Assembly (NCBI GenBank): GCA_020137815.1
Contig: CM035356.1
Coordinates: 3,224,001-3,288,000 of the forward strand
DNA from: Hormiphora californensis
Taxonomy: Eukaryota > Animalia > Ctenophora
DNA length: 64,000 bases
Direction of reading: 5' to 3'
Both the position numbers and the translations under genes were made by a program. The notes beneath the pieces were generated by a model, which was given only the letters and a program-made list of their open reading frames with translations, was not told the origin of the DNA and did no database searches. Shown piece after piece: positions 8,401 to 55,133 of this stretch. Numbering within the stretch: position 1 is the stretch's first letter; each line of letters opens with the position of its first letter.

Positions 8401-11400
8401 CCTCCCCCCTAACCCCTCCCCCTCCCTTACTAGGTTGTTCAATGTGAGACGACCGGACAGGACCAGGAAGGTGTCTTTCTCAACTCTAGACACAAAGATG
8501 GGCAAGATGTCCGGGTACTTTAAGAAACACAACAATACCGTATCTACAGCCTCCAAGAACAACAATCTACCTGAGGTATGTTTCACACGGCCTCGGCAGA
8601 TCAATGTTTCATCTCCCCATGTATTAAAACTTATTCAAGTGATGCCTGTTGTTATGCATTATTTGGACCTAGGAATACTTGTTATCATGACTGAGTATAA
8701 CAGCTGTGTAATTTGCATCTGCTGATAGCATTGGGATTTGATTAGTAACAGATTGCATTGTGTGTTATGTACAGTTTCAAACTTTTCAACACTACTTTAA
8801 ACAAATTAATTTGAGGATCCGTTTTGCTGCCCCTCGTTAATCCTTCTGAGACTTCTGTTTATCCCTCTCCTTAAAGAAAAGACAAGAGAAGACGTGTCTG
8901 GTTTTTCTAAGTAAACAGATCTCAGAGGACCTCGTTGGGTTATAACCAAGGACGCCAAGACTTGCAAGGAACGGTTCCTCGCGCCTCTATTTACAGGACA
9001 GGATGTCGGGTGTGGCTACCCATGATGTTATAATGTGCAGGAACGATATGGAGGGTAAGTTGCTCGCCACGAGCTACTCTGATAGATGTAAGGGTGCCAG
9101 TATTTTGCAGAGCATTAAGGATGATGCAGTGGAGCCTCCAAGTGGAGCTTCCAAGGCGGTTTTATGGACGATGGTCAAGGAACTATATGGATTGTTACCA
9201 GAAACACGACGCATCTCTACCCACTCATCTGAATCTGTGACATCATTCACAGCTGAAGACTTGAAGGATACACTGGATAAGCTGAAAGAGGATCTTCTGA
9301 GCACACTACCGGATCTGGTTGCCCCCAAGGTTAGTAAGATCTTAGCTCCTGGCAGTGACCAATTGGCTATTCACGCTGTGAATCGCATTGGCTCAGCACA
9401 GGAAACTGTGACACCTGTGACTCCAATTAAGAGGTATCTGACTATCAAGGATAAAGGTGAGGAAGGACCTATGTGTGAGAAGAAGTGGACTACTGTCGTG
9501 AAGACAAAGGTGGAGAAAGCATTGAATAAGATTCCAGTCCTAGATCTTTCAGTCACCAAGAGGAGGACAAATCTTATGTTTGAGACCGATGAACAGTTGG
9601 AACAGGCGAAAGAAGTTCTTTCACCGTTCCTTGATGTTTCTCCTGTAGTAGAGAAGGAGAAGAAGAGAGATCCTCGCATCATGATCAATGATCTTGACCA
9701 AGACCTGCTGGAAAAAGATCGCCTTCTGTCAGAGATTGTCAGTGATAAGAATGAGTCTGTGAAGAGACTAGTTGAGGAGGGTCACCTGGTGAAGGTGGTC
9801 CATGTAAACAGAACAGGAAGATATGCAGTGTTCCAGGTCTCTCCAGAAGTGAGGAAGGCGATATCAGAAAGGAAGGACAAGCTATTCTTGAAACTTCGAC
9901 AGCATTCAGTGAGGAACAGGTTTTATGTCACGCAGTGTTTCCACTGTCAGCGCTTTGGCCATGTAGCAGGATCCATCTACTGCCCAAACAAGGATAAATC
10001 TCCGGTTTGTGCCTTCTGTACGGGAGATCATGACACGAGGAGTTGCCATGCCAAGAAGGAAAATGTAGTGAGCAGGATGAAATGTGTCAACTGTGATCAT
10101 GGAGGAAGCAGAGAGGACAAGCGCCATGCTCAAAGTCACCCAGCCTCCAGCAGTATGTGTCCATTCTATGTAAATGCTAAAGGAAGACTCATGGAGAGTA
10201 CCAGTGGAGTAACAAAGCAGGAAAAAAACGTGTACCTGACGAGGGCATGGGAGGATCTGAGAGGAAAACGTCTTGGAGGATTGGCACACTAAACGTCCAT
10301 TCTATTATGAATAAAACGTCAGGTGTAATTACACACTTGGAGGAAAAAGGATGCGACTATCTGCTTGGTACAGGAGACTTATCTGAAACAGAGTGACACA
10401 GCTAAACTTCAGGAGATCAGAGACTATGGTTGGAATATCTTCTCCTCGCCTAGAGCGGAACGTTCAGGAGGTGGAATTGGAATCTTGTACAGGGATGGTG
10501 TCAAGTTGAAATACACTCCGGTAAAAGCCAAGTTTAAATCGTTTCAAGTCCAGGAAGCCCTTATTGGAGGAGGAAAAGATGTAACGAGGCTGTGCAATAT
10601 CTATAGACCTCCGTATACTGGCAAGGCACGGTTTACGGAAGCCCAGTTCTTGGATGAGTTTACTGATTATTTGTCAGAGTTGGTCTGCAAAACGGGGAAC
10701 CCTATCCTGATGGGGGACTTTAACTTCCAGGTTCAAGATACTCAGAACTTCTATGCGAAGAAGTTGCTTGGACTACTTGACTCTCTTGGATTTGATCAGC
10801 GGGTCCCACTACAACCTACTCATGTTCGTGGTGGTACTTTAGATCTGCTTCTCTGCCAAAAAGACAGATATTCTAAGGTTCAATCAGTTGAAGTATTTCC
10901 TGACGGAACGACCTCTGATCATTTTCTTGTATTGGCGGAGCTGTGTATAGAAACTGTTGCAAGTGAATACAAGACTCGTGAAAAAGTGGACATGTACAGA
11001 GATTTCAAGGCTGTTGATATTGAAATACTTCGATATGCTTTTAGGAGCGTGGATTGGAGTGAAGCGATGGAATCTGGATCAGCTGAGGAGGTCTTGTTTA
11101 TTTATATGAGGAAACTTGAGGAACTTGTGGATAGGACTGTCCCGTTGAAGAGGAGAAAGAAGAGAGGAGCTACGCTGAGGCCATGGAGAGATAATCCAGA
11201 GGTGCGTCAAGTTCTTCGTCAGCGGCGGAATGCTGAGCGAGCCTGGGAGAACAATAAAACCAGCGTCACGAAGAAGCATTTCAATGAACTCAAGAGGCAG
11301 TTTGGGCGTGTTGACAAGGAAGCGAGGACGAAATACGTCAAGGAAGACTTGGAGGAGTCCAGAGATGACCCTAAAGCCCTTCAAAGGAAACTGAACCGTC

Positions 11401-14400
11401 TACTTGGTAATACTGAGACCTTTATGCCTGAAACCACAGATAAGCAGAGGTTAGCGGATGACTTTGCGGACTTCTTTGTTGGAAAAGTTGATAAGATCCG
11501 GTCTACTGTTATTGGAGAGAAGAATCTGAGGACTAAGAGGAACCCTATTCATCAGACACCCGTCTGTTGTTTTGAGGAATTTGAGGAAGTTTCCCCAGAG
11601 AAACTAAAGAGGATAATCAAAGACATGCCAGACAAGACATGTGATCTTGACCCTATACCGACTTGGTTAGTGAAGGGGTGTATGCATGAGCTAGCTCCAG
11701 TCTTGTGCAGGTTTATTAACCTATCTCTTGGATGTTCCAGTGTTCCTGAACTTCTCCAGCAAGCTTTGGTGTTTCCCACGATTAAGAACCCTTATGGCGA
11801 TAAGGACACTTTGACCAATTATCGGCCAGTCTCCAACCTATCTTTTGTCTCCAAACTTCTTGAAAAGATAGTTCTAGAGCAGCTCAACTCGTATCTCAAT
11901 GAGAACGAGTTACTAAATAAGCATCAATCAGGTTACAGGGTGAATCATAGCTGTGAAACCCTACTGATGGGTATGTTTGATGATCTCCTTCGGGATATGG
12001 ATGAAGGAAAGGTCGCAGGCCTCTTTCTATTAGATATGAGCGCCGCTTTTGACACAGTGGACCATGGAAAGCTGCTAGAAGTTCTTGAAGGACGGTTTGG
12101 AGTGAGGGGTTCTGTCTTGGATTGGTTCGCCAACTATCTACAAATGAGGACTTATCGGGTAAACGTGGAAGGGGAACTTTCGAGGATTGTCTCTCTGATT
12201 TGTGGAGTTCCGCAGGGTTCACTGCTTGGACCTGTGTTGTTTTTACTGTATGTGGAGGAATTGCAAGATTTGGTCAAACCTTATGGCTTGAGGATTAAAC
12301 TTTATGCTGATGACTCGCAATTGTACATCAGCTTTGTACCAACTGATGAGGAAAACTGGAAACTGGCAAAGGAGAGGACTGAGGAATGCTTGTCAAGTGT
12401 GAAAGAGTGGATGAGTGAGCACTGGCTAAAGTGCAATGAGGCAAAGACTGAATTCCTGCTGTTAGGCAAAAACAGTGCCCTGGATAAGATGGTGTATCAG
12501 CCCACTGTGGACTTTGGTGGAGTGGAGATAAGCCCAGTGGACTTTACGGGTAATGCAGGAAAAACACTAGGAGTGTTCCTTGATAGCAACCTCTCAATGG
12601 AGAGACAAATCAACAGTGTTAAGAAACAATGTGGTTTGCTTTTGAAGAATCTATGGCAAGTAAACCGATGTCTGGATAAATCGACCAAGATACTCCTTGT
12701 TAAGCAGCTCATCATTTCAAGATTGGATTATTGTAATGTCCTTTACCATGGCTTACCTAAGAAGCTTCTCAACAGCCTTCAGAGAGTCTTGAACTCGTGT
12801 GTCAGATTTGTTTATGGCCTATACGGTCACCAAGACACCTACATGCCATACTTGAAAGAGTTGCATGTTCTTCCTGTGGAACAACGAGTCACGTTCAAAG
12901 CATGCCTCATGGCGTACAAGATTGTACATGGATTGGCCCCTGACTACCTGCAAGATCAGGTCCCTGTTGATGATGGACTTCATGTGATCCGGGCTACTAG
13001 AGGAAATGCTTGGCCTGATGGCCTCAAGCTGAAGTACCCTAAGCTATCAAGTGTCAATGCGACTTCCAAGTTGAGAAGAAGACGTCCGTCGGTTTACCTG
13101 CCTGAAGTCTGGAATGGGCTTCCCCTTGATCTGAGAGCTGTTGAGTCTGTGGAATCTTTCAAGTCTAAGCTCAAGACTAGTCTTTTCACTGAGGCTTTTG
13201 GTGAGACTGGACTGTCCTCTTAACACTCTCCTTCTTGCTGAGGTATGTGCTCTGGCTGGTACCCGTTTTTAATTGTTTTTCTGTATTATAGCTCGTGGCG
13301 AGCAGAAGTGTGAAGCATAAATTGGGGTTTTTCATAGCACGAGTGTTTTTCTGTGTTTCCAATCTACGGACTTTTATATCAATTTTTAGAGTTCCAGGAC
13401 TCTAACTCAGTCTGTTATGTATTCAGTCACCGATAGTTATGTGAGCCGATAGTAATGTGAGCCGGTGTATTTTTTCTTTATTATTTTTTTTTTTGTTCTA
13501 TTAGGGATAAGTTTGCGAGGTCTTACCAGTATATTAACCGTTCAGATCATCCTTCAGTGACAGTAGCAGTTCTGCTGCTCTGTCCCTGTCGGATATGGGC
13601 GGAATATAAACATAGTTATTATTATTATTATTATTACATGTGCACTAGCAAACTGAGAATTGGGGCGGGGGCGCTAAAATGCTGAAAAACAAAACTGAAT
13701 GAAAAATTGAATGAAACGATTACCCTGCACCTCATGCATAAGCGCGCTATGCTCCGATATTTCGCTACAGCTGAAGCAAGCTGTTCCTTTTTTCTTACCA
13801 CAGCAGGATTTCATGTTGATTCAATTGCTCTCTACGTGTTGATGATCTGCATCTCTCCTCTTGCTATTATGTTGTATTGTTGAGTAAGGGGTTACTCAAC
13901 AAGTTTATATGTTGTCAGACTCAGCATCTGAATGTGTAATTGTTTGCTTTTTGTATCTGCTGAAGCTGTGTGTTTGCCTGCAGCAGCTGTATAATTTCCT
14001 CACGACCCCCATTGCCCAGCATACCTCCCTGTGTGTGTAGGATAGTGGCAGTGGCACGACAAGACGGACATCCCATCACATCGCCCCTCCTTCTGATTTC
14101 AACTCCGATCATCAGGACGCACCAGCAGTTCGTTCTTTTTGGGAGAGAGTGGTGGATTGGTTGTGGGGAGGAAGAATGCGGGACAGCAGCACTGTGCTAA
14201 ACAATCCCCAAAAAGAGACTATTTCCTCCCTTGGCGTAGTTGTGGAATCATGATGACAAAGAACATAAACATTTGAATGTTATAAAAACGATAATTCGGT
14301 AGAAAACAATATTTCGCTGACCCGCTATCTCAGATTTAATTGTTATGCACAGAGATTTCATTTCTCGGCGTGGAGCATGCCAATATTGTAACAACTTAAA

Positions 14401-14703: not shown

Positions 14704-14925
14704 AGGACAGAGGATGCATCCAAAATATAAACTACTAGGAGTGGAAACTATTGTATGATTTCTAAAACTCGATCCATCATAAATTAGGCACATGTCCATT
14801 ATATAGTGACATGTTCATAAAGGCACACTATGCGGCATACAATGTCATAATAGTACATATATATGACATGTTGTGCTACTCAACCACTTAGTACAAAGAA
14901 TATGTATACAGTACTGGGCCACCAC

Positions 14926-35513
<20,588 letters not shown>

Positions 35514-37097: not shown

Positions 37098-38252
37098 TCG
37101 CCTTTGCTTGCATGAAGTATGGAGGACGATATACTGCGGCCAGAAGAACAATCAAAGAAAGCGCACAGTAAAGGATGAGCTGTTAAACATTTTAATGTCA
37201 CATGCGGATCTCTCTTCAGATTTCCGGAAAAAGATCTTTTTGGCTAACTCACAATTTAATGACTAAAGAATATAACGACTGCATCGTCTGGTGATGAGAG
37301 AAAGAAAAGCCATGCATATACAATGTGGCCGTGGTCAATGTGAAATTAAACGAAGAATGATCGATTTATTTCAGCAGCTTGTCGGTGGTCGATACACAAC
37401 TTTTTGATAACATGCACGTCACAGTGAAATAAAACGATACTAGATGGTGGGAATATGGTGAAGATATTGAATGGGGTTTTATACTGATTTTAAACACCAT
37501 GACTTCCGGTATATTGACGTATTGATTTCCGCACTTTTGTATTATGTTCCGCCTTTGTGAAGCATCATCTAAAGGTGTGTCTTTAGAAGTTTATATCCCA
37601 TTGTGACAATAATAGTACACAACGTCCGCACTCGACAATAGGTCCGTTGTTAGTCTGTGTATTATAATAGCAGCTCCCCTGCCTTGTTAAAACGGGGTGT
37701 TGTCCGGGTAGTATAACATACCCAATGTGTCCTTAATGTGTCCTCAATGTGTCCTCAAACGTTCCGTAGGCAGTATGTTATACTACCGTTGTCCGCACAT
37801 TTTAGAGAGATTCAATGTAATGCCTCTTTTTTATAGTCGTTGAACACTTCATAACGATTTCGCAATTCATCGGATAACTGCCCATCTGGTTATATATATT
37901 AAAGTCCTTCCATTTTCGCAGTTCCTTCTAATTCTGTGAAGAAATGTAGTTATGTATCCTCATGTCTAGCCATAAACAGCTAACTACAGCGGTTATCCAT
38001 TGCAATAACTGCACTATAAAACGCCTGATTTGAAGTTTATTGATGCCATTTCTAGCTGCCGTTTTGATTCTCAACTGTGCAGTGATCTCAGATCGGGTGC
38101 CGCCAGACAGGTGATCACTGATCCCTAGGGCTAGAGATATGATCGAATTATTTATTTATCACCTCACATTGTAACTAAACGATAAACACCCTATAGGATT
38201 CCCTTATTTGTGTAACTTAACAAAACACCCACATAGAGATCAGGAGCAGATC

Positions 38253-39975
38253 ATGTTGAAGTTTGTCAGTGTTGCGGTCCTCGTGGTGATGATGTCGTCC
38301 CTTGTCAGCGCTGATCAGGAGGGCTGTTCCTACTACGACCCAGTCCTGGGAGGTGTCTACGGTCTCTGTGATATGAAGGCCTACTGCAGCTACGGGTGCC
38401 ATGTAAGTTCTGTAGGACACTCATAGAAGAATTATATGTTCGGTAACCAATTCTGGTTACACAATCTGATCTCGGATAAGTTTTTAAAACAAGTTTAGAC
38501 TATTAAAAAAGTTTGCTGAGCATTGAGCACGCTACTATATCAGTATTATAGGGCCTAATACTTATAAATGTCAACTTATCCTTCACACAGCGAAACCAAT
38601 GCTGGAAGCAGTGCGGAAACGCCGAGGATATCTGTGTTCGAGAAACCCGAGCCTTCGCCCTTGCCGTTAACAAGGATGGTACGTAACTAAAGTATCTATT
38701 AGTTAACTAATAAGTTGCTAACTAATAACTATTAATAACTACAATAGCTCCACAGAAAACCCTGTCCAGTGTCCAGGCTCTGACTGTAAAATTATTAGAA
38801 ATTAGAAACTATAATATCCCCTTCAGGAACTCTTTTAACCTGTGACTATCACTTCAAGAACTCTTTTAACCTGTGACTATCACTTCAAGAACTCTTTTAA
38901 CCTGTGACTATCACTCCAGGAACTCTTTTAACCTGTGACTATCACTTCAGGAACTCTTTTAACTGTGACTATCACTTCAAGAACTCTTTTAACCTGTGAC
39001 TATCACTTCAGGAACTCTTTTAACCTGTGACTATCACTTCAAGAACTCTTTTAACCTGTGACTATCACTTCAGGAACTCTTTTAACCTGTGACTATCACT
39101 TCAAGAACTCTTTTAACCTGTGACTATCACTTCAGGAACTCTTTTAACCTGTGACTATCACGACGATTGCAAGAACGAGATCGACTTCACCAAAGCAGGA
39201 TCCAGGTAATAATAATATTAATAATCTCTATTATAATTTGGAGATGAACGACGTCGAAGTGGTGGTCGTTCGTTAGGCGGTATCTAAGCGACAGACTGCT
39301 CCTTCATAAAATACTTCATGTACCCAAAGCTGTAAAGCTGTTGCTCACACTTTTGGAACTTCCAGTGGAAGTTTGAAAATGTTTTTGAATGAGTTTTAAC
39401 ATGCCAGTCCCTATAGTTAACAATTCAGTTGCCATGACAACCGTGTTGACGTTGAAAGGGCGAAAAGAACCACCCGGCGAAGCCGGGTGGGTTATCAAAA
39501 GGCCTTACTTGAGGCGCACCCAATGGGTGCGCTAGTCTATATTATAATTTGGAGATGAACGTCGTGATGGCCGTTCGTTCAGCGGTATCTAAGCGACAGA
39601 CTGCTCCTTCATAAAACACGTCATGTACCCAAAGCTGTAAAGCTGTTATATTCACACTTTCTGAAGTTTCAGTGGAAGTTTCTTAATATTTCGAATGACT
39701 TTTAACAGGCCAGTCCCCATAGTTACCAATTCAGTTGCCATGGCAACCGTGTTATTGACGTTGAAAGGGCGAAAAGAACCACCCGGCGAAGCCGGGTGGG
39801 TAATCAAAAAGCCCTTACTTGAGGCGCACCCAATGGGTGCGCTAGTTAACTAAATAAAGATTTTGGCCACACGACCAACTCGACATGTACTCTACGCAAA
39901 GTATTCTAAACTCCCTTCAATTTCTAAACTCACTAAACCATTTCCAGGTGCATCTACTCCGACCCCAAGTGGTAG
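38253..39975 (+). CDS. Secreted cysteine-rich peptide, 111 aa, 10 Cys; exons 38253-38402, 38591-38678, 39136-39205, 39948-39975
   Basis: MLKFVSVAVLVVMMSSLVSA-DQEGCSYYDPVLGGVYGLCDMKAYCSYGCHRNQCWKQCGNAEDICVRETRAFALAVNKDGTLLTCDYHDDCKNEIDFTKAGSRCIYSDPKW*; intron phases 0, 1, 2 are all consistent. Confidence 0.85.
38821..39161 (+). repeat. 31-bp tandem array of acceptor plus exon start (11 copies, 6 CAG / 5 CAA)
   Basis: Unit cttcarGAACTCTTTTAACCTGTGACTATCA; the last copy runs into exon 3. Confidence 0.95.
39224..39845 (+). mobile_element. Head-to-tail dimer of a ~311-bp non-autonomous Helitron
   Basis: Each unit starts TC(T)..tattataatttggagatgaacg and ends with hairpin gcgcacccaatgggtgcgc overlapping CTAG; the dimer is inserted between A and T. 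Confidence 0.85.
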
Positions 39976-41161: not shown

Positions 41162-43425
41162 CTAGTTGATGAGGGCCAATAAAACTCTCCTGTAGTCTCC
41201 ACTTGTATCATCCTGAACAGAGAGAGAAAGAGAGGGAGTGTTAATTACTACTTGGGTTGAGGGTTTACCATAATAATTGTCACTGAACTGTGTTCACCAT
41301 AACACCCTTGTTCCATGGGCAGAATTCGGCAAAATTTAGGCTGAATTACGCCTTTTAGGCCGAATTCTGCGGCCGAATTACGCCGCAGAATTACGCCTTG
41401 TGCACAGGCCGAATTACGCCTAAAAGGCGTAATTCGGCCTTTTTGGTAGCCCCTCGGGAGGGTGTTATTCACACATCTAATTGATCAATGAAATAACTCA
41501 GTAGATCTCTCTTTCACACCATGCTTAATTAGGGCGTGAAAAACCATCTCACACGGAGTTTGTGCATCTGTGTGTCAGTATTTTTTCCCTGCCCGGGTGA
41601 ATGCCGAAGGCATTCACCCGGATGCCTTTTTACTTTGTAAAAAGGCATAGCAGGGTTAGAATTCGAAAACGACATTTTGGTATACTAACTAATCGGTAGA
41701 GGGACCATTTTGGTCACACTTTAGTTGCGAGGGCAACGGTGTAGCAACAAGAGCCGCGCACACAGTTACGAGCTGCTCCTTCATAAACCACTTCATTGGC
41801 ACGTTTTCAGGAAATGTGTGGCGCGCAATGTGGCGGCGTGGCGCGCAATTTATTGCTACTAAAACACAAGGATTTGCTCTATACTGTTTGTGTGATATAT
41901 AAATGATCGGGATTTTGTGTCCCGCTTGCTGCTACAGCGGATCTGGTCATGATTTCCTTTCTTCATAGATTCACATGGCAGGGAAATTCAGCATTATGTT
42001 AGAACATAATGCAATTAATCTTGTTCTTCCCTTGGAACCGAAGTGCTCACTTTCAAACGGCAGACCGTTTTGCGGAGTTCTGCCCATGGAAGTAGGGGGT
42101 TATACACGGTTCCGTGGATGGTCATATATAAATAATGGGATAGAAAACGTTTAATTACTGTCATGCTCAGACAGTTTAATTAGGAATGCTCAATATTATT
42201 AAATTAATATGATTTATACCTTGACATCTTTGGCAAGTTCACGGGATGTCAGTTTTCTGTAGGAATCCTTGATAGAAGATAGGTCCTTGTCTGCTCGGGT
42301 TACTATTATCCTCGTGAGAGTACCCTCGTCAGTGCCTCGTCCCTGATTTAGAATGTAATAATATATCGATTAGTTCCGATTAAAACTAATTAAAACTCGG
42401 GTCAAATCACTGTACTGTTGTTCAAACTGGGGAATGAGGGTCGAGCAAGGTTATCTACACTCTACATTCTACGGTGATTCTGGATTCATTAAATCCAACA
42501 CACGAGGTGTTTATGTTGCATTAGAGACAGTCCACGTCTCATTCAAACGTGGACTGTCCCATTTACAAGTCTGTGTTTGGCAGTACTAAATACCACCGCC
42601 GGTACTAAGGGCGCGATCACACCAAGATCTTCGAAAGAATTCTTTCGAAGCACCAAACCCAATCACACCAAAATGTTTCGTTTGGTTCTTGCGTGCGGAT
42701 GGCTGTTGTATGCTTTTCACTGTCGTCAGAGTCAAAAACTAGCAATAGACATACGCACGCAAGAACGAAACGAAACATCTTGGTGTGATTGGGCTTGGTG
42801 CTTCGAAAGAATTCTTTCGAAGATCTTGGTGTGATCGCGCCCTAAAATGTGATTCTTTTGTTTCCAAAGTTTGTGTGTGTATGCATAATGCCAATGAATG
42901 AGATCTGTTCAGGATTAAATTTGATTTTAATCAATCCATTCTTCCACAACCGTGATCTGCCCGCTGTATGTTTCCCCTTCACTGTTGTACAGTAGGGCGT
43001 GTATGTGTGTGAGAGAAAGTGAGATTAGCAGCCAGAGAAGATATTAAAAATCTTGTTCCGATATGCATAATGCAACTGCTTTCCCCTTACAGTATTACCA
43101 TAAGAAAGAAACCTGTACTAAAATAAAGCTTCAAGAATTCCGTATTCACCGGCTGAAAAAGCAGTTTTCACATGGTAAATCTTTCTAAGCTCTTTGTACA
43201 AGATTTCTTACTCAGTTTCTTGATTCAAGCTCTCCCTTCGCTAAGCTTTACACCTGTTATACTTGTAGCTCTTCTGTAGGACGTTTGTCCAATGCGGTTG
43301 AGGTAATGAGGTATAATCCTCCATGACCATCCGGCACCCTCTGTTGCTATAATTGCCAGTACTTAACTCCATTCTCCTCAAATCTCTTTCTGGGGTCTCT
43401 CTCACTCACTCTTTCTCTCTCTCTA

Positions 43426-43462
<37 letters not shown>

Positions 43463-46400
43463 CTCTCTCTCTCTCCGCCTTTTTTTCTGACTTCGACATT
43501 GAGCTCTTCGTTTAGCTTTTCAAAATATATCTTCATCTACAATCCAAAGCAGCAGCAGGCAAAACTAAAGGTGTAAGTGCCATGGTCTAGCTTTCTGGCC
43601 AACTAAGTTCCATTACAGTGCTGCTTGTAGTGGCATTACCGTAATAATATTACAGTAATAAGACACAGACTTTGCATAACGTGTGGAAAAAAAGTTCATG
43701 TGTCAGCACGTACTAGCGCACTGATTGGCCACGGTTGTGCGTCGTCATACCGTATCTCCATTTTCCATTACCGTTTTCCCACTACAAGCGACCGGGTTAA
43801 TTTTTCTGGCTCAATAATATGCTCTTTTAGTGGCATGAGATGTTTATCTTTGGAGTTCTTACCGGGCTTATTGGATTGGCAAGTCTTTTGGAGACCTCCT
43901 TCGATAAAACATCGGTCTCTACAGATGAGTGTAAATTAGTGGAGGTTGGTGGATATCTCCACGAACAGTGTTTCCTAAACGAGACTACAACATACTACAA
44001 ATGTCCTCTATCAAATATTGTGTACAATGTGTCTCACGAGATTAGTTATAAGGAAACTAATTGTAGAGGTGTTGAATTCAGCACTCATTGTCCTTCTGAT
44101 CCAGGGTTCTACCAGGCATGCGGGCATGAAGGTTGCTCAGAGTATAGAGAACTAACGGGTGACAACTAAAAATTGTCCCTAATTTAAAACGGCTGTATAA
44201 ATTTTTCCTTTTGAGATACAGCTTCGGGCCAGTTATAGAACGATTTTTCAGACAATTTTGAATCGGAATAACATACTGCCAAAGTCTTAAAAGTTCATTT
44301 TCATTGCAATGACCATCAGGTTGTCGCATGTGCTCAACAAAGCATGTAGGAGGAGAATGCAAAATTCCTATTTTAACAGAACGACCATCCATGAAAGAAT
44401 GTCAAATTATGTTGTTGTTGCCAGAATAATCTACTGCAGTTCAAATTAGCTCATTGAAGTTGGTTTGCCAAGTCTAAGTGATTTAAGTTTCGAATGGCCG
44501 GTTAAGGTAATAAACTAGGCAATTGTTACAAATCCTGAAAAGAATTGGGGTAGGTATGTCAATTACGAGGCAGCGTTAAAAAGTTTAAAATTTTTACCGA
44601 AAAAAGGAAAATTGGTTTACAACCAGTGTTGGCTTTCCTTGATAAATTTTTAACAGGGTACGTATCTGGTTGATACCGATCAGAATGGATGTGTATCATG
44701 AAAGTTAGCCAAAGTTCATTTTTGACCTGAAAATGTTCATTTTGGACCAAAAATGTTCATTTTGGACTAAAAATGTTCATTTTGGTCTTTTTCTTCAATT
44801 TTGAGAGCTTTTTCATGAACGGGATCGTGTTCAGCAGGTCAAAATTAGTCGGTTACAACCGGAATTTGCATTCCGACAAATAAAATCTCAAAAAGTTAAA
44901 ATTCGTCTCCACTAATACTGCAAAGTAGGAAAATGTGCAAGAAAAAAAGATGAAAACAAGAATTATTGCATTATGTATTCATAATGCTGTGTTTCCCTGC
45001 CCTACCGTTTCACATGTCAGTGACATTGTCACTGCCAACAGGATCAAGGCTTGGTCATAATGTAATGTGAGATGCATATGATCTAGCTGTCAGTATACTT
45101 CTCACATAGCTTAGAGTTAGCTAACTCCCAATCACATGACACTTGCTAACCAGCTTTTGACATTCCAACTTAACTACTTATATAACATCTCACACTCGAC
45201 TCGCAAGATGAAAATGTGAATGTAACACGCGAAACGCGCGGCAGAGCATTTCATGTTTTGTTGAGTGGTGCGCGCACACACGTCCATCAAACTGTGTCAA
45301 TGAGGTGTTTGATGAAGGAGTAGCTCGTCACTGTGTGCGCGGCTCTAGTTGCTACACCGTTGCCCTCGCAACGAAAGTGTGACCAAAAAATGTCCCTCTA
45401 CCGATTAGATAGTATACCAAAATGTCGTTTTCGAATTCTAACCCTGCTATGCCTTTTTACAAAGTAAAAAGGCATCCGGGTGAATGCCTTCGGCATTCAC
45501 CCGGGCAGGGAAAAAATAAATTTTTCATTATAAAATAGAGTTCTGAAGGTACAGACTGGAAATAATGGTTGTACTGAGTCTCATGAGGCGATTCATATGT
45601 GTGGTTTTTTCGAAATAACGCCCCAAAAAACATTTTTTGATATGAATATGCCCATATATGGGCATACATCGGCCCACGTAATTGGGCCAGAGTAGGACTA
45701 AAATTTTTTTACCAAATGTTTTAAAATGATCGTAGGAACTCATTCTAGGGGTAAACTATGTGAAAATTGGATTTGATTTATGAGTTGGGAAAAATAGCAG
45801 ATTCTGCAATAGAAATGTGGAATGTACCAGTGCCGAAGATGAGATTGGATATTCTTATTTGACCGTTGATGATCATACCACCTGTAAGATGTACGGATCC
45901 GGGGAGATCGTAAAAATTCAAGATAATATGAGGTGTTTTGATCCGACACATTCCGACTGTTTGAGCAGACAAGATCAGACCAACTGCAGTGATCCTGAAA
46001 AGGTTGTTATGCAGTGTCCCTCCCAGGGCTTCCCAACAACCATATCGTTCTGGGGTTATTGTGTGGGTCGTAAACTTTGTGATGATGATTACAATAACGT
46101 TTGTGTTGATCCAGAAATAGGCTGTACCATTCACAAGGGGCAGTTGTGTGATGACCATCGTGACTGCAATAATGGAAGAGACGAAACTTGTAAAGATCTC
46201 ACAAATGTGACTTGCATCAGAAGATTTCACTCTCCAAACGTGGAGAAGAACATCTCCCTACCATTTCCATTGGAGTGGGTCATGGATGGGGAAGTGGACT
46301 GTCTGGATGGAATGGATGAAGATAAGGGTAATTGGAAGATATGCGGATCTGACTATTACACCAGGTATCAAGAGATAGGGACTGAATGCGATGAAGTTCT

Positions 46401-49322
46401 TCTCTGTCCTTTAGAGCGAAACTATATTGACTTAAACAGTCTTTGCGATAGAATAAACACGTGCTCGTTTGAGGAAAAACTGTGTATCGCAGCTCGGCAA
46501 ACTGACGCTGATGTTACAAGCCTCGTCGATACTTTCATCAAAGGTCCCAATGAACAGTTCATTCAGCACTGTTTTCCATTCGGAGCTTCTGACCTGGAGA
46601 GGAAGTTGGGAAAGTGCTACACAGTCGGACACACTGCTGGGCACGTCAAAACGGTTCTTGATGTTCAACAACCTGTGTTCGTAAAGATTCCTGAAACCAA
46701 GGTCGATTGCTCCCATCTTTTTGGTGAAAACTATGTCTATGCTGCTTGCAACGATGTTTGTTTGAATGCTGAATGTCCGCTAAGGGAAATTCCGGGAGAC
46801 ACATGTCTAAATAAAAAGGATTCTGTAGTAGCCCTGGCAGCGACTGAGTTTCCAAGTAAAACTACACTGATCAAAACGGCACAAGTCCCCGGATTCTACG
46901 ACAACGAAATATTCCCGTGTGATAATGATAATTGTGTCTCCTATCGGGATGTCTGCAATCTTAAGGACGACTGTGGTGATGGCTCCGACGAGAAGAACTG
47001 CTCTAATCACTTTGAGTGCAACAACAGTAACATATTGGAACTCATACCGCTATCTTATGTTTGTGATGGCGTGGTACATTGCCGTTATTTCTCAGACGAG
47101 TGCTTTGAAGGTTGCCGCTCTACAAGCCAAAATATCTTCGAGAGCGAATTTCTCCGATATGCAAGCCCATCTATGGGACTTTTATCAACATCCTTGAACA
47201 CTATTTCATTAATTAAATCGGTTTGGGAGTTACGACAACAAGAAACGTATGAAATGTTCCTCAATAAGCTGGCCATCACAATGATAAACCTTGGTGACTT
47301 GATGATTGGTGTATACCTGCTGCTCATCTCTTACTTTGACCATGCCTACAGAGCTGATGGCAACTATTGCCAAGAGAGATATCAATGGTTTAGCTCCAGC
47401 GAGTGTTCCTTCCTTGGAGTTCTGAGCACAACTGGATCACAACTATCACTCTTCGCAATGACAATGCTAAGCCTAACCAGAGTAGCAAACATCGGCAACC
47501 TCATCCAACGGGACTTATTCAGCTACAAGTCTGCTGCCAAGCTTGTGTTTCTCCTAGTTTGTCCTACTTTAGCAAGTTTCGTGATTGCAGTCACACCCAT
47601 CTTGTCATTGACTGAGGACTACTTTGTGAACGGCTTGTACTATCATGAATCACCGCTCTTCATCAGGCCCGTAACTAAGATTAACCACTATAAAGTTTTC
47701 AAGGAGTACTTTGGAGGGCGGTCAGTGTCGTGGGAGAAAGCATCGTTTTCCTGGGAAGTGATCCGTTCAACAGTCAAAGACATGTTTTCGTCAAATTATG
47801 GAGGTAATTACTGTTTTTAATTGTGTATCAATATATATGTTTACATGCTTGATTTTACAATAAATATAATGTTCTAAATCATTTTCAGGTATTCGAAGTT
47901 CGACTGTCCATTTTTATGGCAATGATGGTGTGTGCATTTTCAAGTATCTGGTTACCCGAGATGACCCCCAATGGGTGTTTTCAACAACCATCCTAATGAT
48001 TAATTTCTTGTGTTTCATCTTGATTTTGCTGAGCTATGTATACATCAACTTGAAAACGCAGCAATCCAGCCGGAATGTGGGAGCTGCTGCAGGTGGTCGA
48101 AGCAATAACAAAGCACTGCAAGCAAAAATATCAGCAATTATCCTAACAGACTTTTTTTGCTGGATTCCATTGAGCATTGTTGCATTTCTTCATCTCTCAG
48201 AAGCTGTAAATGCGTCAACTTGGTATCCCTTCTTTTCGATTCTTATCCTTCCCATCAACTCGGTTATCAATCCCTTGTTGTATGACTCCAATTTCTACTT
48301 TGGTCTTCTAAGTATTCCAACACAAGCTATACGTCGGAGTACACGAAGACTAATACTGTTCATACAGAATTCTATCGGCAATCATCAAATGCCTATGGAA
48401 ACAAATCCCCTTGCCCAAGAAACGGCGCTTTGAAAATGCGACCAGTGATTAAATGACGGACAATTGGGACAATGAAAAACCGTTTAGAGACTATCATTTA
48501 TTATCAAGAATATGTATGTGTTAGTTATACTGTGTTGGTATCAACTTAATTTGAGATCAACAATGACAATGAGCAAAGTATCTTGTGTGAATATTATGTT
48601 ACCCTCTGTAATTACTGAATTAAGCTGTTTTATCTGTATTTCTATTTTCTAGGCATGACTGCTTTGAGTCATTACCGTACGACGTACGACAAATATACAG
48701 AAATTTAAATGCAACCTACAGATCTCGTTGATAATGAAATTATAATTAACCCTTATCCGCGCTATAATAGCTCACGGAGCATATAGTCACGGGGTGACTT
48801 CGTAAGCAACAGATCTCAAGTCTTGGTAACCTAGATACACTTTGGTTACGAAGTTACTCCTCCCTTGCCAGCTCGTGAAGGTCACGGGGCGACCTTTAGA
48901 GGGGTTATTACTTATTTCATAGCCAAAGATAAACATACCTCCATGGTTGGTTACCATGGTGACCAACTCTTTCGTAACCTACCTCCATGGCGGCCTTCAG
49001 CTCGTAGGCAGCGTAGTAGTTGAAGTCTCGTGCCACGAGGAGGAGAGATGTGAAGCAGTCTTTGACATGGTGACCTGTCATCTCAGCTAACACCGTAACC
49101 AGTTCATCTGCTGTCTCCTATATGGTAAAATGGAAATTAGGGCCGGAGTCTCAACAGGGAATAGAAGGGATCAGTCTCAATTAATAGATCCTACAATTGT
49201 ATACACTATTATGCCAAAAACTAACAGAAATTAGTTGGCTGAAAAGGTGACCACTTTTGTTGACAAATTGACACCTTTGCCCTCTCCGGGTTTCATCATT
49301 ATCTTTCCCTCTCTAATTTCTA

Positions 49323-49398
<76 letters not shown>

Positions 49399-52300
49399 TC
49401 TCTTTCTCTTCCTCCCTATCTCTCTCTCTATCTCTCTTCTCAAACTCCCTGATTTACCCCCTGATTTTCCCAATTATAATAAATCGATGATATCCGTAAC
49501 CCGGGCCGGGCAAAGGTGTCAATTTGTCAACAAAAGTGGTCACCTTTTCAGCCAACTAATTTCTGTTAGTTTTTGGCATAATTGGGGTACATTTTTGGTA
49601 TTTTCTGATGTGAAATACAATGTAAGACATGTCTGGACGTAGCAGAACGTATAAAGACCGTCAGGAATCGCTAAAATACGAAAATTTTAATTTTGACGTC
49701 ATTGTGACGTCATAGCGTGACGTCACGACGTTATAACGTCATGATAGGGAAATATTATTATCAGGCTCATTTAGATAAAGAGGCTGACCAAGTTTGAGAT
49801 CGATTGGACAAGATTTGAGGTCGCTATGGCGAAAAACGCACTATCGTCATATCTATTTTCATACAGTCTTAACACTTCAGACGCGATTTGAGACCCTTAG
49901 AAATAGAGTTTTACAAATTCGCGATATAGTTTCTGAAAGTTTAGACGATTATCTTTCATAAGTGTGGTCCTCTTTTTCAATCAGAAATTGTCTTCAGGGT
50001 GTAAATTGAGCTCAAAGAAATTTGGTTGGTTTGAAAAATGTCTTATCTTTATGACAGTTTGTCAAGACGTTCTGATTGGACCTAGAACATGAAAACTATT
50101 CGTCTACACAATTTAAACGATTATCTTTCGAATGCAACAAACGAGAAGTGTCTATCTTATGTCGTTTTCTCTCAAAAACGATTATAAATTTGGTAAAATA
50201 GCGTCTATCCATAGATAGATACATAGATAGATACATAGATAGACCCGGGACACTTATTGCTTTTTTCACGATGCCATATCTCTGAAACTAAAAGAGATAG
50301 AGACTTGCCCTTTTAAACTACAGTAGATCTAGACTATGTGACACTGTATACCAAATTTCAGACTGATTGGTGCAGTGGGGGCCTCGCTATGGGCGTCGAA
50401 AAATGCCATTTTTTGGCTAAACACTGAAAAAAGTTATTACTGCATTCTGGCACACGCGGCTGGGGGGAGGGGATGGTCACCTTTGCGCTTGCCAGCGCAG
50501 TGACGCATAAAGGAGCTAGGCTATAGTTTGGGCTGGGAGCTTAAAGAGAATGCTTCGACTGGATAAGTGAAACGAGATGGATAATAAAAAGTTGTGTATT
50601 TCTGTACCATGAAATAGGTTCTTTGCAGAGCGTCGATCCTCTTGAGAGAGATACTGGTTAGGAAAGTTGCTATTCCATCAACATTCTGCCCCTCCATGAG
50701 ACCCTTCATCTCGGTCAGATCAGCAGCCTGCTGGGAGTCTGGCACTGTGGTCTCATTCATCACACCACGATCCAGAACACCCAATAGGAAGGTCTTTAGT
50801 GTTCCGTCTGTCTCGCTCACTATCCTATCTCGGAGCTTCTCGCTGTAGACTAATAGGGGAAATAGTTATAGTTAAAGTAGTGGAATTTATCGGATATTTA
50901 AAGTTATCATTCTTATCCATATAATTCCATCCTCAATTATCTCAGCCTGGTTATCTGATATTGCCCCAGCCTATACTACATATTTATCTGATATTCCACC
51001 GGGCTCCGTAATATGGAGTCAATATTATCCCCTGATATTTAGCAAAAAGCTATAACAAAACTATATAACCCCAATATCCCCCGATAATCCGATATATGTA
51101 GTAGTTATCTTATAGGTACAGTCGGACCCCGATTTAACGGCCCCCGATTTAGCGGCACCCCGATTTAACGGCAGGATAAATTTCCCCCAACAATTTTTTC
51201 AAAATTTTTTCGAAAATTTTTTGAAAATTTTTTGAAAATTTTCCAAAGGTGTTTAAACCACGTCCGAATCGTGTTTCGAATCGGTGCATCTTATTGCAGG
51301 TCTTACCCGTAATTAGACGGTTCGAAACGAACAGATATGTGATCCCCATGAGGCCAATCGAGTCGCAATTTTGACGCTTGTTAAACTGGCCCCATGGGGA
51401 TCACGTATCGGTTCGTTTCGAACCGTCTAATTAGCGACAGGACGTGCGATAAGATGCACTGATTCGAAACACGATTCGGACGTGGTTGATATATCTTTGA
51501 AAAAATTTCATAACTTTTTTTTGGAAAATATTACAGAATGATTGTCAATGCTTTGATCGGTGCTCCCCATGAATTTTCAGAGAAAAAGATATTTTGAAAT
51601 TCGAATTCTTCCTCACTCCGCTTAAAGTGCCCCGATTCGGCATGGTATCACGTATCGGTTCGTTTCGAACCGTCTAATTAGCAGCAAGACATGCGATAAG
51701 ATGCACTGATTCGATATACGATTCGGACGTAGTTGATATACCAGTACCTTAGAAAATTTTTATAACTTTTTTTAAAATTTTCAAAATTATTTTATTTTTC
51801 TATCCAGAAATGATCATGTAATCAATACATGGACATAGCATTTACTTAGAGGTGTTTTAGTATAGTATTTTGGACAAAAATAGGGTTTTATGGGCCAAAT
51901 ATGCTCTACCCCGATTTAACGGACACCCCGATTTAACGGACAAAACCCTTCCCCCGAGGGTGCCGTTAAATCGGGGTCCGACTGTAGTTATCTAATATGA
52001 GTTCCCCATACCTCAACTACCTCAAATATATAATTATCACCGCGTTAAATATTTGAGCTAAACTGTAACTTACGAGAGTAGTAATAAGATTTGACTCCTC
52101 TCACGGTGGTGGGGTCCCGGACAGTGAGCATGAGACAGTTGATTAGTGTATCCTCGTTTGTACCCCATCCTTGCTGGAGATGGGAAGGACGTGGAGGTTA
52201 GCGAATAAATCATATCCCTCCTCAATAAATCATACGCACAGAAAAGACATGTCTTTATAACTATAAATAATCTAGAAAACTTATTAATATATTACTCTGT

Positions 52301-53152
52301 GCGGACCATCATGCATCTATGATTTGTATATAGAATCACACACATACTATTCGAGAGAGATACATTTATCTGATAGGATCTGATAAGATCACCATGGTTA
52401 CACACTGATACACTAGCTCACATTCGCACTGTCGTAACCCTGTACCATGGCAGATCTCATCTCCTCAGCAAGGAACTGGGCCTCCGTCATGACAAGTCCC
52501 TTGAGGGCATTCCTGAAATCTCCACTCGTATCAGACTTGATGTCCCCCCACAGTGTCCTGTCAAACTCTCTCTCGTACACATTGGACAGCATCTGATATA
52601 TGGGATTTGTAAATTTGAATGAGGGGTATTAGTGCCTTCCTGCAAACCCATATGATGAAATCATACCGGACATGATCATGCAGATCACTGAGCCTGTACA
52701 TTGTACATGTACATTGTACATGTACAGTGTACACTGTACATGTACAGTGTACATCGAGTAACCTACCAATCGTGTGTTGTACCGCCGGTTGGCGAGAACA
52801 TTGATAATCGCCTTCTCATCTGTTCCCCATCCCTTCACCGCCTTTCTGATTGTGGCCGCATCAGCTGTCAGATCTACCGAATCGGGCTCAATAATCGTCT
52901 CACCCCTGTGAAGGAAATAGGGTGAATAACAAGACGTTAATAGTAGATCCATATAATTTTAGGCCCTAAAATTAGGGTGTGGTACTGGTATGGTACTGTA
53001 CAAATTTTAGATACACTGTATTTTAGAAGCACCTTGAATACACCTCTTATCTACTACTAATAAAAGTGTAAAACAACAAACTTATGTGTAACATACGGGA
53101 GAGTTGCTGCAGATAAGATCTGGAAGGTTACCAAGACCAGGACAAGTAACAT
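41162..53152 (-). CDS. Annexin with N-terminal signal peptide; exons 53152-53097, 52905-52767, 52592-52446, 52173-52074, 50849-50608, 49117-48983, 42342-42220, 41212-41162
   Basis: Four annexin repeats: AVKGWGTDEKAIINVL..DTSGDF, AMQGWGTNEDTLI, a degenerate repeat 3, AMEGRGTDEGTLTRIIVTR..DDTSGDYRRVLLALIN*. Exon 1 MLLVLVLVTFQILSAATLP joins in phase 2. Confidence 0.9.
41299..42103. mobile_element. MITE with imperfect ~33-bp TIRs and internal gccgaattacgcc repeats, containing a nested hairpin element
   Basis: ttccatgggcagaattcggcaaaa at 41311 vs ttttgcggagttctgcccatggaa at ~42068. Confidence 0.65.
41581..41986. mobile_element. Terminal-hairpin dispersed repeat family (Helentron-like), copy A
   Basis: tttccctgcc...ggcagggaaa ends; terminal hairpin ccgggtgaatgccgaaggcattcacccgg; reverse-complement match to 45300-45517. 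Confidence 0.7.
42609..42842. mobile_element. PIF/Harbinger (Tourist-like) palindromic MITE
   Basis: TAA|GGGCGCGATCACACC...GGTGTGATCGCGCCC|TAA with ~88-bp arms. Confidence 0.9.
43840..48433 (+). CDS. LDL-receptor class A repeat-containing GPCR (GRL101-like, no LRR seen), nested in annexin intron; exons 43840-44158, 45749-47803, 47889-48433; in-frame TGA at 45781
   Basis: Signal peptide, multiple LDLa motifs (CDDHRDCNNGRDE, DGEVDCLDGMDE, CNLKDDCGDGSDE) and 7TM with GDLMIGVYL, FYGNDGVC, TDFFCWIP, PINSVINPLLY. Confidence 0.88.
44992..45517. mobile_element. Terminal-hairpin dispersed repeat family, copy B
   Basis: tttccctgcc at 44992, hairpin plus ggcagggaaaaaa at 45476-45517; body near-identical to 55880-56135 and 56620-56748. 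Confidence 0.75.
49208..50504 (+). mobile_element. Helentron/DINE-1-like non-autonomous element (copy 2)
   Basis: Perfect 75-bp inverted arms (49208-49282, 49508-49582) around (CT)n, a (TAGA)n tract, and the same 3' end cacctttgcgcttgccagcgcagtgac as copy 1. Confidence 0.7.
51119..51984. mobile_element. Tc1/mariner (pogo/Tigger-like) MITE
   Basis: TA|CAGTCGGACCCCGATTTAACGGC...GCCGTTAAATCGGGGTCCGACTG|TA; subterminal ccccgatttaacgg repeats. Confidence 0.92.
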
Positions 53153-54261
53153 ATTTCAGTGTGATGTGGCTAGAAAGGGCGTGTGTTAGACAAACAATGG
53201 CAGCAAAGCAGTACCAGCTAAACAGTCGATGCAGCTACAACCGCACCAGACATAGTTAGATATAATACTGAGCTGAGATGCAGACAGCAGCTGTCAGAGC
53301 ATTTGACTGACAAGGCAGCAGGGGTAACGTCATGAAACTGTCATGACAGACTAGTCCAACTCCAGGGTCGCGAGATTAAAATCTGGAGATGGAAGGCCAT
53401 GATCACGAGACAAACAATATAGCTACAACAGAGAGCAGCTAGACAATGTAAATTGTTACACCATCTCTCTCCCTCCGATCTATGTTGTGTAAAGAATGAC
53501 TCAAGAGCTCTCTCTCCCTCCGATCTATACTTTGCTATATCTACAACAAAAGTTGCCCAAAAGTAACGATATACTCATAGATCGAAGAACGGCCGGAAAC
53601 AGTGTAGCGAACACAAGTTGAGATGTGTGCATTGAGATGACACACGTCAATGGCGATCATTCTAATTGAAACAGGTTACTGCATCACACTTCAATTAGGA
53701 TCACTAATAATGGGACACAGGTCACTGACACTATAATAATGGGACAGAGATGCAGGGATCAGGCACATGAATCCACATCTACAGTGTGCTTGGCAATAGT
53801 ACAACAACAAACAACACCAAACAACACCAATATATTTAATTTGTGAGGCAGCGTATAGCTCAAACAGCACGGATATTTTGTGAGGCAGCTCGCATTGCTC
53901 GAACAGAGAGCTAAATAGGTCGCTATGAAAGCATGGGATCATCTGATTACTGTTCATTGAACATCCTAGTAGATCTCTATATATGGCAGGGGAAGTAAGT
54001 GACGTATGGAAAACATACTATTATTAATATGATATCGTTACGTCACTGTGCCCATACGGACACAGGATTCTCGTGAAATTATGTGTGTGAATTATTTGAA
54101 GCATGAACATGAGAACGAGAGAAGAAAAGGATATTGTTTTCATGTGTTTCAGATACACTATACAGTTGACTTGGTGTGTCATGAGAAATTATATCTTACT
54201 ATTTCTAAGTTAAAATGAGTGTTTCGTAGGCCCTATAGATTACCGCCCCATCACCCTTGTA

Positions 54262-55133
54262 TCAAGACCCTTCTTTGCCACTGAGCTGGGTGAGCAAGAA
54301 AGGGTCGGTTGAGGTGCATGGTCCTTTTAATACGAGTTGTCACGCTCTCACGGTGAGTGGTGACAACTATACAACTAATTAAGTAATTATGATTTTACCT
54401 TGATCAATCCACTCTCCGCCGTACCACACACAAGGAAAGGTATTGGGGAAATAAAAGGCGCTGGTAGCGGTGTTGATATTCGGTTTGTAGGTGGTTATCG
54501 TCTTTACCCACTTCCAATTCACTGAAAATATCAGAGCACCCGACTTTCCGTCTATCTTCATCTTAATTGTGTTCATTCCGTTTTTGAGGACTCCTGAAAT
54601 CAGGATATTTAGTATTTTTGTCACGTTTAAATGGCGATAAGGTTGGTTTAAAATAAAAAAATCATAAAGTTTTACCTTTTTCTAGAGAAGGTTTGCCATG
54701 CGATTTCCACCCGTTATTAATAACTGATGAAAACTTGATGTAATTAGAACTTAGCTCTATTCTAATCGGCCGGTATTTGCTACTCCCCTTAACGAGATAG
54801 AAATTCGTCGTCTTGGTAACTGAATAACTCCAACTCTCCTTCAGGTAGAGCTTAAAAATCACGGTGTCCCCTTTGTCAGGCTTTACCGGTCCAATCTTTT
54901 CATTATTACGAATGGTCCGACGGATTCCTGCCACTGAAAGGATGCTTTGAGAGGCTTTCTAACAGAGAAAAAGTTCAAAAATAAAAAATAAAAAAAAGTT
55001 CAAAAAATAAAAAAAGTTCAAAAAATGAAAAAATGGTTCAAAAATAAAAAATGAGCACTGAGCCTGCAATCTATTAAATATTGTTACCTGACGCTGTCAT
55101 GATGGTAAATAACAAGATACTAGACCACCCCAT
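54262..55133 (-). CDS. Secreted basic beta-rich protein, possibly galectin-like fold; exons 55133-55088, 54933-54676, 54593-54399, 54323-54262
   Basis: MGWSSILLFTIMTASVAG signal-like N-terminus; three phase-1 GT-AG introns; alternating beta pattern and FSSVINNGWKSH resembling the galectin NS..NG.W.xE segment. Confidence 0.6.

Follow-up and report, generated by a model that had tools for sequence, protein, structure and literature searches.

An annexin gene in a 64,000-nucleotide stretch of Hormiphora californensis DNA (the window) was found to belong to a conserved annexin subfamily that carries a predicted signal peptide and whose named members come from ctenophores only. Judged from its sequence, the protein is very probably exported by the normal route through this peptide. 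The original prediction of a conventionally secreted or luminal annexin is thus upheld as a prediction, the leader character being kept across four diverged lineages of one branch. The distinctive feature is an old, conserved signal-bearing annexin in a free-living lineage; signal-bearing annexins as such have already been published.

The annexin gene model comprises eight exons on the minus strand (53152–41162, 993 nt), with GT-AG borders at every intron and a frame open to the stop at 41162, and the spliced product is a four-repeat annexin of 330 amino acids. Exon 1 (53097–53152, 56 nt) encodes the start codon and the hydrophobic leader, the predicted signal peptide, with the sequence MLLVLVLVTFQILSAATLP, and ends at 53097 in a phase-2 donor (GTATGT), with which the acceptor at 52905 agrees in phase, as had been claimed for a separate first exon splicing onto repeat 1. 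Exon 2 (52767–52905) starts the core and includes the repeat 1 AB loop GWGT (52832–52821; Pfam Annexin E 1.8e-08), exon 3 (52446–52592) includes the repeat 1 cap Asp86 and the start of repeat 2 (Pfam Annexin E 1e-05), and exon 4 (52074–52173) includes the repeat 2 AB loop GWGT (52170–52159), Cys127 and a two-residue insertion specific to the clade (clade profile E 8.3e-12). Exon 5 (50608–50849) contains the repeat 2 cap Glu160, the linker with the sequon NET (50757–50749) and repeat 3, of which the AB loop is missing (clade profile E 2.6e-15), exon 6 (48983–49117) contains the end of repeat 3, helix A of repeat 4 and Cys249 (clade profile E 2.8e-11), exon 7 (42220–42342) contains the repeat 4 AB loop GRGT (42342–42331; Pfam Annexin E 1.1e-09), and exon 8 (41162–41212) ends the protein with the repeat 4 cap Asp316, a tail free of KDEL-type, transmembrane and GPI-type signals, and the stop codon. 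The Pfam Annexin family (PF00191) matched three of the six exon pieces scanned. A profile of eight relatives, from the build of which the model was left out, aligned residues 3–330 of the model (E 5e-127), and the same profile, run against the six-frame translation of the window, matched, out of 3,334 segments, solely those of the seven core exons. The ATG of exon 1 at 53152 has an A at −3, and the 5' region (53156–53180, minus) contains an in-frame TGA two codons 5' of the ATG together with a pyrimidine-rich, acceptor-like AG site (53170–53180), 17 nt 5' of the ATG. Trans-splicing occurs in ctenophores, and this site may represent the acceptor of a 5' UTR intron or of a spliced-leader trans-splice.

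The relatives were exposed by two routes. The gene model P0001 of Pleurobrachia bachei, retrieved with exon 5, shows 98% identity over that exon; it has the same exon 1/2 join and a leader identical at 17 of 19 residues, the two changes being conservative, and its later part carries a frameshift, so P0001 may itself be a mere prediction. The profile search added Bolinopsis microptera XP_063683374.1 (P0006) with its cluster mates P0124–P0127, P0007, P0074 and P0041. The P0006 group, P0007, P0074 and P0041 display 43–50% identity to the model, against about 35–36% for the best other annexins. Six relatives lie on contigs of 1,094–1,511 nt and are probably spliced transcripts, since contigs so short nevertheless encode 337–342 amino acids. 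Five of the records are 93–99% alike, so the relatives represent four lineages and not eight. P0041 has no leader and begins at the Met preceding the repeat 1 loop, and is read as an N-terminally truncated record. In a midpoint-rooted tree of 54 selected rows, which contains no cytosolic ctenophore annexin, the six representatives fall on one branch with support 100/100, P0007 being the outermost. Further sampling yielded no close relative among 21 annexin loci in a scan of metagenome contigs (best segments 22–58% identity), generic annexin clusters only in the ESM Atlas, and, within the top 150 of the 5,814 hits of an exhaustive profile search, no further member of the clade; the ranking of this search was crowded by long multi-repeat proteins, so that an absence of further members is not shown by it.

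Whether exon 1 is the true first exon of the gene depends on its chance level and on its counterparts in the relatives. It could alternatively be a chance hydrophobic stretch, or the exons of the upstream gene could feed the annexin, and such a misplacement of the true or main first exon is considered very improbable. The two strands of the window together contain 397 candidates that run from an ATG to a strong phase-2 donor. The signal-peptide heuristic, which looks for an uncharged hydrophobic window and small residues at −3/−1, was passed by 9 of them, and just one of the 397, namely exon 1 itself, reaches the hydrophobicity of exon 1, which speaks against chance. Among 42 candidates lying from the stop of the upstream gene to exon 2, three pass, of which two share the ATG of exon 1 and the third has a weak donor. 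Moreover, leader and core are spaced in the orthologues as they are in the model. On the other side stands the RNA comparison, which covered two runs over 49600–54960 of the window, with word shares of 0.04 and 0.00. No contig of either run crosses the exon 1/2 junction (53097/52905) and exon 1 is uncovered, which is evidence neither way. A 151-nt RNA contig spans the exon 2/3 junction, and a longer contig (1,123 nt) from a relative, about 85–89% alike, matches exons 2 and 4 and starts inside exon 2.

The possibility that upstream exons feed the annexin is raised by P0002 of P. bachei, which joins the first 51 residues of the upstream gene to exon 2. The upstream gene (55133–55088, 54933–54676 and 54593–54379, minus), located 1.2 kb upstream of the annexin, is however a complete three-exon ORF of 172 amino acids, and at the position of the P0002 junction, the window lacks a phase-2 donor. 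P0002 is accordingly read as a prediction chimera, whose N-terminal piece maps to the upstream gene. The start of P0002 is itself signal-like, so the P0002 form would be exported too. The upstream gene shows 81% identity to the matching part of P0002, and therefore changes faster than the annexin. Its 172-aa protein has a signal-like start and a body rich in lysine and aromatics; a galectin-like identity, judged by eye, was dropped, as it gave no Pfam or PDB sequence match.

The leader is hydrophobic in all lineages. A start hydropathy of at least 2.0 over the best 10 residues was observed for the model and for all eight clade records with an N-terminus (this count excludes P0002, as chimeric, and P0041, as truncated), against 1 of 117 other annexins. 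Between lineages, the leaders share 3–10 of 17–23 residues and the cores 135–163 of about 308 (44–53%); the leaders have diverged more than the cores, a pattern as expected of signal peptides. A lenient form of the signal-peptide heuristic was passed by all nine sequences and a strict form by the model and five of eight relatives, the failures being P0006, P0127 and P0074. The leader of the model has no basic n-region. Small residues at −3 and −1 are the rule for signal-peptide cleavage, and for the model, the cut originally placed after Ala15 (L-S-A|A) is matched by S-A-A|T, after Ala16, which fits the rule at least as well, so that the exact cut position is uncertain.

Such a segment could also stay uncleaved as a membrane anchor, with the core tethered on the luminal side or outside the cell, or left in the cytosol. 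This is thought improbable, although the first 19 residues of the model average a hydropathy of 2.15 and the P0074 leader is devoid of a standard −3/−1 site. The corresponding mean is 2.01 in P0001 and just 1.41–1.83 in the seven other relatives, and small-residue cut sites are found in eight of the nine leaders, both of which disfavor an anchor. The orientation of hydrophobic segments follows the charges that flank them, and the charge difference (C minus N) around the leader ranges from −3 to −7 in all nine; these acidic flanks after the segment argue against a cytosolic core, and would fit a luminal C-terminus. The core has no second hydrophobic segment (19-residue hydropathy at most 1.25), and the full-length proteins end in -LIN or -LVN with neither a retention motif nor an anchor.

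Behind the leader, the fold of an ordinary annexin is probably preserved. Four annexin stretches were recognized in each of P0006, P0007 and P0074, and the model aligns end to end. The predicted structure of the Bolinopsis orthologue, used as a proxy for the model, displays the standard annexin fold with a 20-helix core (pLDDT 92.5) and resembles annexin IV (TM 0.84, Foldseek E 3.7e-20), with residues 1–26 unpacked and of low confidence; the four repeats and the 20-helix core are shared with annexins A4, A3 and A5, the nearest solved folds. A type II calcium site is described as a GxGT loop with an acidic residue about 40 positions downstream (PMC3588008). The earlier observation of GxGT in repeats 1, 2 and 4 and its loss from repeat 3 was confirmed in the 330-aa model, and in all six representatives, the G-x-G-T loop and the acidic cap are conserved in repeats 1, 2 and 4, as in the annexin family (PF00191), and both absent from repeat 3, the motif of which is the one described as most often lost in other annexins (PMC3795353). 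The clade differs from canonical annexins in that the hydrophobic leader replaces the cytosolic head and repeat 3 has kept neither loop nor cap.

Differential changes were also observed around the calcium sites. The lysine preceding GxGT in repeats 1, 2 and 4 is present in 91%, 81% and 94% of the 117 other annexins, respectively, against 1, 0 and 1 of the six representatives, and in the clade, helix B of repeat 2 no longer has its conserved Glu and Arg. Five of six representatives have a net charge of −20 to −28 and the model one of −9, against a median of −2 in the 117 others. These changes would also suit a protein that enters the secretory pathway and, being acidic, binds calcium within granules, mucus, mesoglea or mineral concretions instead of coating membranes, and the loss of the lysines together with the acidic charge might just as well reflect reduced lipid binding. 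Such a granule or matrix role is regarded as unlikely, if far from negligible, since the membrane-binding face is intact, with three AB loops, their caps and the exposed loop 1 Trp in all six representatives, and 13 of the 117 ordinary annexins are equally acidic.

The N-glycosylation sequon NET noted in the linker of repeats 2 and 3 was found as the single sequon of the model (residues 179–181). Its use as support for secretion did not hold up, being weak evidence because 89 of the 117 ordinary annexins have a sequon somewhere; in 12 of the 117 it lies near the same place, and within the clade, four of six representatives have it in the same column, P0074 has it displaced and P0007 has none. 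A conserved disulfide was likewise considered and found no firm support, as Cys127 and a helix IVA Cys are paired in sequence in three of six representatives and the second Cys of the model lies elsewhere.

As a possible history, an ancestral ctenophore annexin would have swapped its head exon for a signal-peptide exon. The leader would direct the chain into the ER and be cleaved near Ala16, with Asn179 perhaps glycosylated, and the protein, having no anchor or retention signal, would be released. Extracellular calcium, in seawater and body fluid, is millimolar, and the sites of repeats 1, 2 and 4 would therefore stay permanently loaded outside cells. Rather than a calcium switch, the released annexin would act as a standing coat or patch on phosphatidylserine-type surfaces, candidate targets being wounded or dying cells, shed vesicles, and prey or microbial membranes; with the lysines lost and an acidic charge, binding at low calcium would be weaker, which fits a high-calcium setting. 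A putative role in coating exposed anionic membranes in calcium-rich fluid is given close to an even chance on these residues. Somewhat more tentatively, the secreted subfamily might have arisen before the cydippid/lobate split and been retuned for millimolar calcium, serving as a standing membrane patch or a phosphatidylserine opsonin, for example in rapid wound closure or the gut lumen. If true, the subfamily would be the first case of a conserved annexin that a free-living animal secretes classically, with extracellular and cytosolic function separated in one gene.

Annexins are described as proteins without a signal sequence (PMC10882027, PMC3588008, PMC12249911). The premise that they generally lack signal peptides holds in these reviews and in the 116 of 117 other annexins without a hydrophobic start, and is qualified by published exceptions (PMC2791119, PMC5078806). 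Heterodera 4F01 (Hs4F01 and Hg4F01) is reported as an annexin-like effector of 340 amino acids with a predicted cleaved signal peptide (PMC2791119), and in this combination of four repeats and leader it resembles the ctenophore model. It is, by the same account, a parasite gland effector of one genus, thought active in the host cytosol (PMC2791119), and by this description contrasts with the ctenophore gene, which occurs in a free-living lineage and is kept at 43–50% identity; from lineage, we infer a separate origin for the two. The venom annexin of Psyttalia concolor likewise bears a signal peptide, of 20 amino acids, and was detected as protein in the secretion, but is described as having two annexin domains only and as a venom component of one parasitoid species (PMC5078806). 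The published signal-bearing annexins located in the literature thus come from parasites only, cyst nematodes and a parasitoid wasp. Among 147 further proteins of the exhaustive search, four had a hydrophobic start and two were signal-like, namely P0198 of the horsehair worm Gordionus (CAK9296931.1) and P0206 of the rumen fluke Calicophoron (CAL8071370.1), both outside the ctenophore branch. These possibly represent further independent gains in parasites, and the Gordionus start may be a prediction variant, because the same organism has a 1,179-aa cluster mate. Together, the nematode, wasp, and predicted horsehair worm and fluke cases suggest a recurrent capture of signal peptides by annexins.

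The vertebrate annexins A1, A2 and A5 act outside cells, as is proposed for the ctenophore protein, and extracellular annexin A5 shields exposed phosphatidylserine; they are described as having no signal sequence, and their release route is called enigmatic (PMC10882027). The extracellular roles are called a conundrum in the same review, since cytosolic and outside functions are inseparable (PMC10882027). An apparently exclusively secreted annexin in free-living animals that can be cultured and branch close to the root of the animal tree would allow the role outside cells to be tested by knockdown, and would also reveal the residues that change once the fold works in calcium that is always high.

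Bolinopsis XP_063683374.1 carries the database label 'annexin A13-like'. Annexin A13 is myristoylated at Gly2, and Gly2 is absent from all nine sequences, so there is no A13-type myristoylated start; the clade also forms its own long branch (100/100) apart from A13, and A13 membership was rejected. No paper on ctenophore annexins was found in the largely open-access literature searched, and supplements of ctenophore cell atlases and preprints may list the gene; the supplements of PMC9525235 and PMC11184263 gave no matches to 'annexin'.

Several other features were observed in the window. A gene for a receptor with LDL-receptor-class-A and rhodopsin-type 7TM parts (43831–48430, plus) is nested antisense in the 6.6-kb intron 6 of the annexin, with frames at 43831–44166 (signal-like start), 45784–47817 and 47870–48430. 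An asparagine synthetase frame (311–1264, minus) stays open over at least 318 codons, in contrast to the intron-rich remainder of the genome. A LINE-type element (8946–13220, plus) retains an open ORF1 of 448 amino acids and an ORF2 of 964 amino acids with endonuclease and reverse transcriptase, and several short frames at about 14900–23500 (minus) resemble ankyrin-repeat exons by eye. In addition, a 31-nt unit repeated 11 times in tandem, with 96% identity, occupies 38821–39161, and a short signal-like frame lies near it at 38175–38423 (plus).
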